NCBI GenBank assembly: GCA_964016885.1 | Contig: OZ024742.1 | Coordinates: forward strand, 234,422,001 to 234,486,000 | DNA: 64,000 nucleotides | Source of the DNA: Eledone cirrhosa | Taxonomy: Eukaryota | Direction of reading: 5' to 3' | Shown: positions 7,044 through 19,789 of the stretch, piece by piece | How positions within the stretch are numbered: position 1 is the first letter of the stretch | How the letters are laid out: each line of letters opens with the position of its first letter | Translations under genes and position numbers: made by a program | Notes under the pieces: generated by a model | What the model saw: only the letters and a program-made list of their open reading frames with translations | What the model was told of the DNA's origin: nothing | The model's database searches: none

Positions 7044-7680
7044 ACGTTATTCCGGGTTGAATCGGAGGTAACCACAGTAAGTAAGGTACTCAATACATTG
7101 CAGAGTATAAAAGTTTTAATATAGATGAGATTCTACAGGACTAGAACTGTTTCATTCTTTAGAAATCATCAGGAATCTGGGTATCAAAAAATAAATATGG
7201 TATTTATAGGTCTCTACAAGTGGTAGGAGAGGGTGGGGAGTGGGATGGGTGTAGGTCATTGGTTGAGAGAAAAGGGAATTCATTAAAAGCTAATTCTACA
7301 AAGCTATAGTTTATTTTTATTTATTTTTGTTTTTAGAGTAACAAAGGCAGACAGAATTCTATAAACAGGTTCCGGATGGCATACCATTCCTTGTCATTAA
7401 GTTTCTCTGAAGCTAACAGATGTCTATAAGATCAGTGGGGGGTCAGTCATGGTAGATAGAATTAAAGGAAAGGGAGATTCTTTAAAAGCTAAATTCATTA
7501 AGGTTCTACTAAGTGACAAAGGTTTAGAGAATTCTGTAGACAGATTCAAAATACTGAGTGCATATCTTACAATTATCTTCGAACTTCTCTTAAACTAATC
7601 AACTATATGCCAAAAATCAACAGACACATTCACAAAAAGACACACTCACTCACACACTCGCGCGCAACCATAAACACACA
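7044..7680 (-). mobile_element. Penelope-like element family A 3' repeat (pLTR), inverted copy
   Basis: ~600-bp sequence matching 53930-54558 (+), 44702-45260 (-) and 19480-19765 (+, partial); carries a hammerhead motif. Confidence 0.75.
7128..7178 (-). ncRNA. Type I hammerhead ribozyme (family 1)
   Basis: AGATTC-CTGATGA-TTTCTAAAGAAT-GAAA-CAG TTCTAGTC CTG-TA-GAATCT: stem I 6 bp, stem III 4 bp, GUA triplet. Confidence 0.8.
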
Positions 7681-8056
7681 TACACATACACATATACACA
7701 CATAAAAACACACACACATATATAAATATATTTATATACATATAAATACACATATATATATATATATATATATATATATATATATATATATACACATACA
7801 TACACACATACATATATATACACACACACACACACACATATATACACATATATATACACTCACACACATACATACATGCACACAAATATACATGTGTATA
7901 CATATACACATATATACACATAGATATATATATATACACATATATATATATATATATATATATATATATATATATAATACATATATATCCACACATATAC
8001 ATATATATATACATATACACACACATACACACAAACACATATATATATATATATAT

Positions 8057-8391
8057 GGAGGCACATGGCTTAGTGGTTAGAGCATTGGCCTTGCAATCGA
8101 AAGGTTGTGAGTTCAATTCTCAGACCGGGTGATGTGTTGTTTCCTTGAGCAAGACACTTTATTTCACATTGCTCCAGTTTACTCAGCTGTAGAAATGAGA
8201 TGATAGGGACTGGGGTCCCTATCATTCCACTGCAAAGTGGACGTGGAGGTGCCACGGCAAAAAAGCACCCAGCACTCACTGTAAATGAGGTTGGTGTTAG
8301 GAAGCTGTAGAAATCAAGCCAGAATCAGTTCCCCGTCCCACCCTTGCAAGCAGGGAAAAGCGGACGTAAAATGAAATGAAATGAAAATGAA
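8057..8391 (+). mobile_element. tRNA-derived CORE-type SINE (family A) with RTE-derived 3' tail
   Basis: A box TGGCTTAGTGG, B box GAGTTCAATTC; CORE-like CCTTGAGCAAGACACTT...CAGTTTACTCAGCTGTAGAAATG; tail matches the RTE 3' UTR. Confidence 0.85.
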
Positions 8392-8590
8392 AAAATATAT
8401 ATATATATACATAAACAAATATATACATATACATACACACACACACACATACATATATATATACACACACACACACACACATATACACATATATAAGGAA
8501 AAAGCACCATACATACATATATATATATATATATATATATATATAGAGAGAGAGAGATACACCATTCATATATTCATATATATATATATA

Positions 8591-9247
8591 CATCATCATC
8601 ATCATCAACGTTTAACGTCCGTGTTCCACGCTTGCATGGGTTTGGACGGGGGTAGTCCCACTTGAGGCAAGAGTGATTGTCTTGCTCGCATAGGACTGTC
8701 TGGCAGGTTTTCTACAGTTGGATGCCCTTCCTAACACCAACCACATTTACAGTGTGGGTCTGGGAGGTTTTTACCGTGTTGCCTACACGGCCACATTACA
8801 GCATGGACTGTGTGTTTTTTTGTCGTGACACCTACACGATCTCATTTGTTTCAGCCTGGATGGCGCGGCACCAACATAACTTTACATAGAACGGGGTGGT
8901 GTGGATAGGGTGGGGGTGGTGGTGGTGGGACGGGGTGTATTTTGTTAGAGATGCCTACTGGCTGTAGTAGGTTTTACTATGTATTTAGGTAAGGCGGGTC
9001 TTCTCTGTTACTGAGTACCGCCAAAGGTCTCGGTCCAGTGACATTGTCTTGGAGAGGTGTAAGTGTGTGAGGTCGGAGTTTATCAGCTTGTCCCAGGCTT
9101 TTCTAGGTCTGCCTATTCCGTGGCTACCGTCTATCTTTATTGCCCTGCACTTTGTTATACAGCTATCGACTTTCATGCGCATCACGTGTCCATACCAACG
9201 TAGCCTTCTCTCGAGTAAACAACATCTGATCCCTCATATTTCTAATT
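8591..9247 (-). mobile_element. 3' fragment of RTE LINE (subfamily 2)
   Basis: Encodes ...[24 protein letters not shown]...EKTRLT plus 3' UTR and (GAT)n. Confidence 0.9.
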
Positions 9248-9388
9248 ATATATATAGATACACACACATACATACATATATACACATATACATACACACA
9301 TATATACACACACATATATATATATATATATATATATATATATATATATATATATATATATACACACACATATACATATATATATATA

Positions 9389-17792: not shown

Positions 17793-17841
17793 GATTCCTG
17801 ATGATTTCTAATGAATGAAACAATTCTAGTCCTGTAGAATC
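17793..17841 (+). ncRNA. Solo hammerhead ribozyme (family 1) within (TA)n
   Basis: GATTC-CTGATGA...GAAA-CAA TTCTAGTC CTG-TA-GAATC; one stem III mismatch. Confidence 0.65.
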
Positions 17842-19245
17842 TCATCTATATATATATATATATATATATATATATATGTGCGTGAGAGAGAGTGTGTGTA
17901 TATATATTTGTGTATGTGTGTGTGTGTGTGTGTGTGTGTGTGTGTGTATGTGAATATGTGTGTGTGTGTGTATATATGTGAATATGTGTGTGTGTGTATG
18001 TATGTGTGTATATGTATGTATATATATATATATGTGTATGTATATATATATATATATATATATATATGTATATATGTATGTATATTTGTATATGTATGTA
18101 TGTATGTATGTGTGTATGTATGTGTGTATGTATGTGTGTGTGTGTGTGTATATGTATATATGTGTATATATTGTGTGTGTGTGTATGTGTATATATATGT
18201 GTATATGTATATTTGTATATATATATATATATGTATTTATATGTGTGTGTATATATATATATATATATATATATGTGTGTATATATGTGTGTATGTATTT
18301 GTGTATATATGTATGTATGTCTGTGTATGTGTGTATATATATATATATATATATGTATATATATATATATATATATGAATATATGTATGAATGGTGTATC
18401 TCTCTCTCTCTCTCTCTCTCTTTCTCTCTATATGTATGTATGGTGCTTTTTCCTTATATATGTGTATATGTGTGTGTGTGTATATATATATGTATGTATG
18501 TGTGTGTGTATGTATATGTATATATTTGTTTATGTATATATATATATAAAATTTCAGGTTATCAATAATGTAGTGATAATATATCGTTACGTTAGAGATG
18601 AACAGCGTACGTGCAGGTTAGCTCAACGAGTATAAATTATATTCCGGAGAAAATGTAGAAAGGATGAATATAAAATGAAAGTGCTTTTTTTAAAAAGGAA
18701 TTTATTAGGTATTGACATATGTTTCTGTAACAGACGGAATACCTATGTATCGCTGCTTGCGTAATCATATAATGTTAGCAAGTATTCGATAGCAAATGTA
18801 TAATCAGTTGTCACTTCTTCAGAGATTTTGGATAAATTGGATAAAATCAGAAAAATTGAAGTATTTATATTAGTAATAGAGGAAGAAAAAGAGGGGATAG
18901 TATATGACAGATGGTAAATTAATTTACTGCTAAACAAGTATATAATGGGTTTCTAATGAGAATACCATGAGTAAATCTAAATAAGAATTTTGGGAGTGCC
19001 AATTTTAATCTCTACTTGACCAATTGGACAGTGGACAGGGCTGGTCATTTGGTGCAGTAGTATTAATTATAAAGTGTCAATTGGGGAAGGGGGAGATTTC
19101 GATTGCTACTGAATAACATCAATGATAGTAGCCAGCTGGTATATGCATTAGGGAATTGAATCAAGAAATCAGAAATCTCATTTTATCTATAGCAGTTTAT
19201 ATTAAAAGGTAAATAATAGAAGAGTTGATAGAATTAAGACTAATA

Positions 19246-19480
19246 AAGAATGTTAATATCTATTTTGACAATCAAACGGAGATAGAGACAGGCGTTCAAT
19301 CTTGGTAGTATTTATAATATGAAAATGTAGATTTTAAGCGATTTTATTAAATAACAGAATAGAGCGATCGTTATACTGTAACCATCGCTTAAAATCTACA
19401 TTTTCATATTATAAATATTACCAGGATTGAACGCCTGTCTCTATCTCCGTTTGATTGTCAAAATAGATATTAACATTCTT
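19246..19480. repeat. Inverted repeat, ~97-bp arms, ~41-nt spacer
   Basis: 19246-19342 is the reverse complement of 19384-19480 with 2 mismatches. Confidence 0.92.
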
Positions 19481-19700
19481 AATGATAAGGAATGGCATGC
19501 CATCCGGAACCTGTTTATAGAATTCTGTCTGCCTTTGTTACTCTAAAAACAAAAATAAATAAAAATAAACTATAGCTTTGTAGAATTAGCTTTTAATGAA
19601 TTCCCTTTTCTATCAACCAATGACCTACACCCATCCCACTCCCCACCCTCTCCTACCACTTGTAGAGACCTATAAATACCATATTTATTTTTTGATACCC

Positions 19701-19751
19701 AGATTCCTGATGATTTCTAAAGAATGAAACAGTTCTAGTCCTGTAGAATCT
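19701..19751 (+). ncRNA. Type I hammerhead ribozyme (family 1)
   Basis: Identical to the 54423-54473 motif. Confidence 0.8.
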
Positions 19752-19789
19752 CATCTATATTAAAACTATATATATATATATGGAGAAAT

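Follow-up and report, generated by a model that had tools for sequence, protein, structure and literature searches.

A Hydra-clade Penelope-like element of Eledone cirrhosa that probably spreads its own TA/TG target microsatellite as a 3' UTR

A Penelope-like element (PLE) of the Hydra clade in Eledone cirrhosa has, with high probability, a fixed TA/TG microsatellite tract of ~1.7 kb as its 3' UTR, which is very likely copied through RNA and seeds (TA)n where long copies land. The window, i.e. the whole 64,000-nucleotide stretch that was analysed (contig OZ024742.1, 234,422,001 to 234,486,000), contains two insertions of this family. In the following list, T denotes the 599-bp 3' end, landmarks a to t are ordered sequences within the tract, and X is a SINE-like element.

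6789..7043, no strand: (TA)n target tract, left flank
7044..7645, minus: inverted arm, whole 3' end T1-599, predicted hammerhead core at 7172
7646..16626, minus: inverted arm, 3' UTR microsatellite, landmarks t to h, interrupted by nested insertions
8057..8390, plus: nested tRNA-like SINE (Rfam tRNA 28.1 bits, under the gathering score of 29)
8590..9246, minus: nested RTE family 2, 3' fragment
9390..11875, minus: nested RTE family 1, 5'-truncated, RVT_1 and PHD, 99% identical to the RTE at 12068..16510
12068..16510, plus: nested RTE family 1, full-length, 1040-aa frame, APE endonuclease and RT
16627..17274, plus: forward arm, 5'-truncated ORF end with CxCX5C linker and GIY-YIG
17275..17445, plus: U1, unique start of the 3' UTR
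17446..18545, plus: forward-arm microsatellite, landmarks a to m
17793..17845, plus: nested single-arm hammerhead piece of the own or a sister family, variant core at 17798
18546..19477, no strand: foreign insert with hairpin 19243-19483, likely another PLE end
19478..19767, plus: forward-arm 3' end T241-530, predicted hammerhead core at 19707, joins (TA)n
44702..54558, no strand: second insertion of the PLE family
44702-46094, minus: second insertion, inverted T1-530 and tract, with X at 45640-46040
46095-47495, plus: second insertion, forward ORF
47738-48374 and 49194-53422: X and a second Hydra-type PLE, respectively, in the forward tract of the second insertion
53960-54558, plus: second insertion, complete T1-599
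18442 and 53451, plus; 8494, minus: landmark GGTGCTTTTTCCTTA
53711, plus; 7883 and 45442, minus: landmark CACATGTATATTTG
7657 and 45244, minus: landmark GGTTGCGCGCGAG (the version at 53930 differs by one base)

The region 7044-19767 is a single head-to-head insertion of a young element whose copies are ~98% identical. The first-pass annotation had attributed the inverted and forward arms to one PLE insertion, and landmark mapping supports this, with an inversion junction at ~16624-16627. All seven landmarks that it named were recovered at their positions and strands, forward past the GIY-YIG stop and reversed into the 599-bp end, and their order is preserved across all four arms of the two insertions. 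A ~65-nt extension of the 599-bp end is present in the inverted arm (7044..7645), and such an extension occurs at one end only. The forward arm is without landmarks n-t and T1-240, and 18546-19477 stands in their place. Mapping of the window also bears out that a SINE, three RTEs and pieces of PLEs inserted later. The tRNA-like SINE has three further copies in the window, the full-length RTE carries 98-bp tandem repeats in its 5' UTR, and 12068-13090 is the 5' UTR of this third RTE, with 12700-13300 contiguous in all 40 scored hits.

Other features were observed alongside. The RTE copies at 9410-11875 and 14029-16493 are 99% identical, lie in opposite orientation 2.1 kb apart and show no editing bias between them, and the RTE frame has a PHD-like finger within the RT region. 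The second Hydra-type PLE (49194-53422) has DKT and CxCX5C, and its 3' UTR contains a 35-bp minisatellite repeated 20 times instead of a microsatellite. Further hammerhead-bearing hairpin families at 43729-44685 (cores at 43830, 44007, 44255 and 44586) abut the second insertion. Rfam reported only low-complexity miRNA look-alikes and sub-threshold tRNA and U2 matches in the window, and no hammerhead; the weak U2 snRNA-like match at 35021-35110 reached 32 bits, under its gathering score.

The family was assigned to the Hydra clade of EN+ Penelope-like elements by motifs and layout. Open 714-aa frames were found in L105, L103 and L112, each a single ORF with RT followed by GIY-YIG. Among 8,000 scored sequences, the protein had 1,312 homologues at E<=1e-30, one of which carries PF01541; a Pfam scan of PLE fragments from the window returned no family, and a PDB sequence search returned nothing significant. 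According to the available parts of PMC8557442, Hydra elements possess a C-terminal GIY-YIG, DKT, RW(K/R), a CxCX5C linker and CxxC/CxH around the catalytic E and N, together with a 3' hammerhead, a (TA)n target, an inverted 5'-truncated arm and a 30-40-nt tail at one end. The family shares the GIY-YIG, DKT, RW(K/R), linker, hammerhead, (TA)n target, inverted arm and one-sided tail with this clade. SDKT and RWR occur in the query protein (RWK in most homologues), the linker reads CNCLNKEAC, and CDLC..E and LLNK..CMH represent the CxxC/CxH pair. CCHH is absent, as no conserved CxxC lies between GIY and YIG among the homologues. The EN+ layout is visible as a pseudo-LTR in partial tandem, an inverted 5'-truncated arm, a one-sided tail and a hammerhead motif, and TA runs follow most of 28 3' ends sampled without bias. 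Listed Hydra families measure 1.1-3.0 kb and published consensuses <3.1 kb, as far as the available parts of PMC8557442 (Craig et al. 2021) report. In contrast to this size of <3 kb, which is typical but not diagnostic, the unit described here is ~4.7 kb long because of its 1.7-kb internal microsatellite, and its tail is ~65 rather than 30-40 nt.

A pattern search located the predicted hammerhead core (CTGATGA...GAAA...GTA, 6-bp stem I) on the minus strand at 7172 and 44762 and on the plus strand at 19707 and 54429, with a variant core at 17798 (plus). The short stem II, the 4-bp stem III and the predicted cut past GTA match the layout of the Hydra rows in the available part of the PMC8557442 supplement; the hammerhead of the octopus element Hydra-1_Obim (2,507 bp), described in the same partly available source, is different. 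Insertion ends do not coincide with the predicted cut (~T508), and the minimum-energy fold is a structure other than the predicted hammerhead (z -0.18).

Profiling of the 3.0-Gb genome yielded 1,901 first-look candidates for the 3' end and 1,739 for the endonuclease end. A 28-nt landmark had 258 exact genomic matches compared with none for its reversed control and is therefore not a chance sequence. In total, 91 loci were mapped, 38 selected by the 3' end, 29 by the endonuclease end and 22 by the landmark (30 chosen, 8 overlapping larger loci removed before counting), plus the two window insertions. The unit order is ORF (714 aa), 195 bp of unique sequence, the TA/TG microsatellite with landmarks a to t and the 599-bp hammerhead-bearing end. 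Across the 91 loci, 801 adjacent landmark pairs are in order vs 15 out of order, the last landmarks lie directly 5' of 87 of 91 near-complete 3' ends, and none of 40 random 10-kb regions contained two landmarks. This genome-wide test of landmark order supports the view that the microsatellite moves with the element. The expected complex microsatellite of ~1.5 kb was found, with a size revised to 1,048-2,050 bp (median 1,673) in the 25 uninterrupted ones of 48 U1-to-T spans, three of which bridge two insertions or tandems (L087, L103:2499, L109:7285). Each copy of the tract holds 18 (TA)6+ runs.

Flanks are unrelated among copies on many contigs, and each copy is individually truncated or inverted in the PLE manner, with (TA)n junctions of its own. 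Since, in addition, no alignment exists between the outer flanks of the two insertions in the window, a local segmental duplication, which the first-pass annotation had named as a counter-explanation, does not apply. Many insertions are head-to-head pairs as in the window, bounded by T599 on one side and by T523-536 on the other; among 212 matches scored for their ends, 101 end at T599 and 66 at T523/530/536. In dispersed copies, 5' truncations and inversion junctions fall within the tract. The earlier assignment of the tract to the PLE 3' repeat is only partly retained. The tract belongs to the element, but it is absent from the 5' pseudo-LTR, which in six copies (L103, L105, L107, L112, L130, L142) is a T[x-599] fragment immediately before the ORF. 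Because the 5' pseudo-LTR of full-length copies is a fragment of the 599-bp end without the tract, the tract is a 3' UTR.

An unbiased sample of 3' ends was obtained by taking the first 30 by coordinate, two of which were 5' junctions. Most of the 28 true ends are ~200-bp hairpins around the hammerhead; four reach the tract, one more does so via its partner arm, and none lies inside a tract. Four contig runs were matched to the 3' end and none bridged into the tract, which has no bearing on expression. As separate observations, L094 contains, nested within its tract (1700-3560), a tandem array of four 466-bp units that are 100% identical, with relatives in L134, L041, L197, L039 and L136, and an array of dozens of hammerhead-end pieces with spacings of 234-311 bp and more (G000 C28, ~30.50-30.85 Mb) may be retrozyme-like or a satellite.

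The proposed cycle would start from a transcript comprising the ORF, the tract and the 599-bp end, with the GIY-YIG domain presumably nicking (TA)n. Reverse transcription would begin at T599 and usually halt within ~140 nt near the hammerhead, and a strand switch would generate the inverted arm, which meets the target at the element's own TATA sequence at T523-536. Roughly one in seven copies would extend into the tract and bring along ~18 (TA)6+ runs. TA-seeking elements, including the family itself, other PLEs, RTEs and SINEs, would then hit the tract like any TA DNA. In a re-transcribed copy, the nested inverted repeats could form double-stranded RNA that is likely deaminated by ADAR, and re-insertion of such RNA would fix A-to-G changes in the DNA.

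Judging from the genomic copies, it is very likely that the tract and its nested cargo go through an RNA stage, undergo editing and return to the genome by insertion. This conclusion is based on siblings that share a nested insertion and differ in their edits, and on hyper-mutated copies with an ADAR-type bias. Two hairpins nested in the family's own tract show A-to-G changes on the host sense strand in both arms, with 5 and 6 G.T mismatches (Poisson ~1e-4 and 1e-5) against a total of 19 in 44 free-standing hairpins that share their junctions. The doubly changed pattern derived from these two hairpins has no other genomic occurrence; looser patterns found more. The siblings L347 (C4) and L348 (C1) carry a common tract variant (k-mer Jaccard 0.59; 48 other spans reach 0.20 at most) and share the nested self-insertion hairpin, its junction and its site, whereas their flanks, 5' ends and A-to-G patterns differ (3 vs 5 changes, partly different). 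Their unedited parent was not found among the junction hits examined (16 of 16 for one junction, 31 of 67 for the other).

Heavier one-strand A-to-G change on an inverted repeat was found in L349 (102 of 247 A), L346 (22 of 45) and L334 (14 of 48). L349 sits in an internal AT run of a second family, the unhit form of which occurs in L105, L310 and L351. In seven segments, which were chosen because they are edited, the edited fraction of A by 5' neighbour was 0.46 after T, 0.37 after A, 0.19 after C and 0.10 after G. ADAR disfavours a 5' G and favours a 5' U or A, and against this preference the bias is of the ADAR type. Among non-array A-to-G rows, 19 of 66 had a second change and 9 of 66 three or more, vs 4 of 100 and 0 of 100 in a G-to-A control whose pattern had 4 free positions vs 7. 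Several recent inverted pairs have identical edits in their two arms (L335, 11 and 11; L345, 10 and 10; L284; L344), as expected if edited RNA was the template. These strand-specific clusters likely record RNA editing written into the genome. No G.T excess was found in 20 other nested hairpins, which indicates that the majority of nested elements inserted once the final round through RNA was over. L350 does not fit the simple model: an antisense 3' end is edited there at 31 sites (4728-5123), and the host's own 3' end, its expected partner, is unedited. The 33 G.T mismatches of L094 were dropped as a (TA)/(TG) self-alignment artefact. In L346 (2853-5340) and L334 (1387-4916), A-to-G-rich segments are flanked on both sides by X and have further edited neighbours, which suggests read-through transduction by the RTE-like SINE X, an element with 23,353 exact 3' ends.

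A wider reading is tentative. Several TA-targeting families might carry their target microsatellite, collect nested inverted repeats and re-mobilise the composites via ADAR-edited RNA, forming a common heritable route from editing to the germ line and a collective engine of microsatellite growth.

Of 799 landmark intervals in the tract, which total 158 kb, 43 contain an interruption, usually at a pure TA run, and the same small elements interrupt different intervals in different copies. Three interruptions were judged doubtful (L041, L065 and the long L085 span), leaving about 40 nested insertions for the 158 kb of tract, compared with one split in 48 kb of unique element sequence, i.e. ~10 times more insertions than in the rest of the element, with a split test that overlooks insertions that truncate. 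The tract is nevertheless not special among microsatellites, and its description as a dedicated landing pad was not upheld, because 158 kb of tract contained 6 copies of X and 64 kb of random microsatellite contained 13 pieces of it, none of 30 X ends examined falls within a family tract, and none of the 28 own 3' ends does. The nested X copies in L034, L069, L088, L124 and the window (45640-48374) are all host-oriented, and (GTAT)n frequently follows the ends of X, which hints at a strand-specific target. L064 and L085 share an unedited insert in the same interval of the same variant, which may reflect inheritance or two separate hits.

It is improbable that the element preferentially re-inserts into its own tract as a strong feedback engine driving genome-wide TA expansion. 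Self-insertions within the tract do occur (L049/L348, L347, L086, L103, L105 and window 17793), about 5 being independent in 158 kb, or ~2x the genome-wide minimum of 14 per Mb of microsatellite given by 6,860 exact 3' ends, and the second inverted-arm family has an internal AC/AT tract that was likewise hit and carried. Against this engine, no end of the unbiased sample lies inside the tract and only four reach it, and no random region held two landmarks despite the abundance of purine-pyrimidine alternating DNA, which makes up 16.1% of the 40 sampled regions, or ~480 Mb of the 3.0 Gb. An upper estimate of 1,500 insertions with two full tracts each gives 5 Mb; given this value and the 4 of 28 ends that reach the tract, the family's share of the TA/TG microsatellite is estimated at 1% or less. 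The suggested explanation of the TA-repeat expansion by this system is thus not supported, and one tract-carrying family does not account for the microsatellite-rich genome.

Spread at the DNA level by segmental duplication, gene conversion or assembly error, with local A-to-G clusters from DNA:RNA-hybrid deamination or RNA-templated repair, is very improbable and largely refuted. The missing unedited parent of L347/L348 and the one-armed editing of L350 would suit it, but each copy is individual in flanks, in junctions and in its PLE-type truncation or inversion, edits on one strand in both hairpin arms require fold-back RNA, and the L335, L345, L284 and L344 pairs share their edits.

The retroelement with an RNA-copied tract remains the preferred reading: it carries its own insertion target in a 3' UTR, a region that masking and short-read consensus building would remove. 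The A-to-G fossils offer a DNA-only means to identify composites that passed through RNA, suggest ADAR activity in cells transmitting insertions, and make RNA-editing feedback into the genome testable by census. The element kind, the target, the inverted structure and microsatellite seeding by retroelements are already known. Within the literature covered, which included few subscription papers and neither Repbase nor Dfam, no PLE with an internal compound microsatellite and no ADAR-type fossils in PLE copies were reported, and there was no precedent for a long compound tract that contains the target of its element, for nested cargo that is inherited or for A-to-G fossils.

Among known systems, the insect elements mini-me/DINE-1 and the lepidopteran Helitrons also disperse an internal microsatellite, but they are DNA or rolling-circle elements with short tracts and no RNA passage, unlike the present retroelement with its long tract and very likely RNA passage. 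Fossilised deaminase marks, clustered and strand-biased, are likewise known from APOBEC-edited LTR retroelements, where cDNA editing left fixed G-to-A changes that were reported absent from 19 invertebrate genomes in the available parts of PMC4866542 and PMC2873906; the marks described here are A-to-G, confined to inverted repeats and in an ADAR-type context. The snake CR1-L3/Rex LINEs similarly spread a microsatellite with their 3' region, a short simple terminal repeat according to the available parts of PMC6050309 and the review PMC3812793. In contrast to these LINEs, which dominate the abundance of their motif, this PLE family contributes a small share, and its tract is long, ordered, internal and compound and contains the element's own target.
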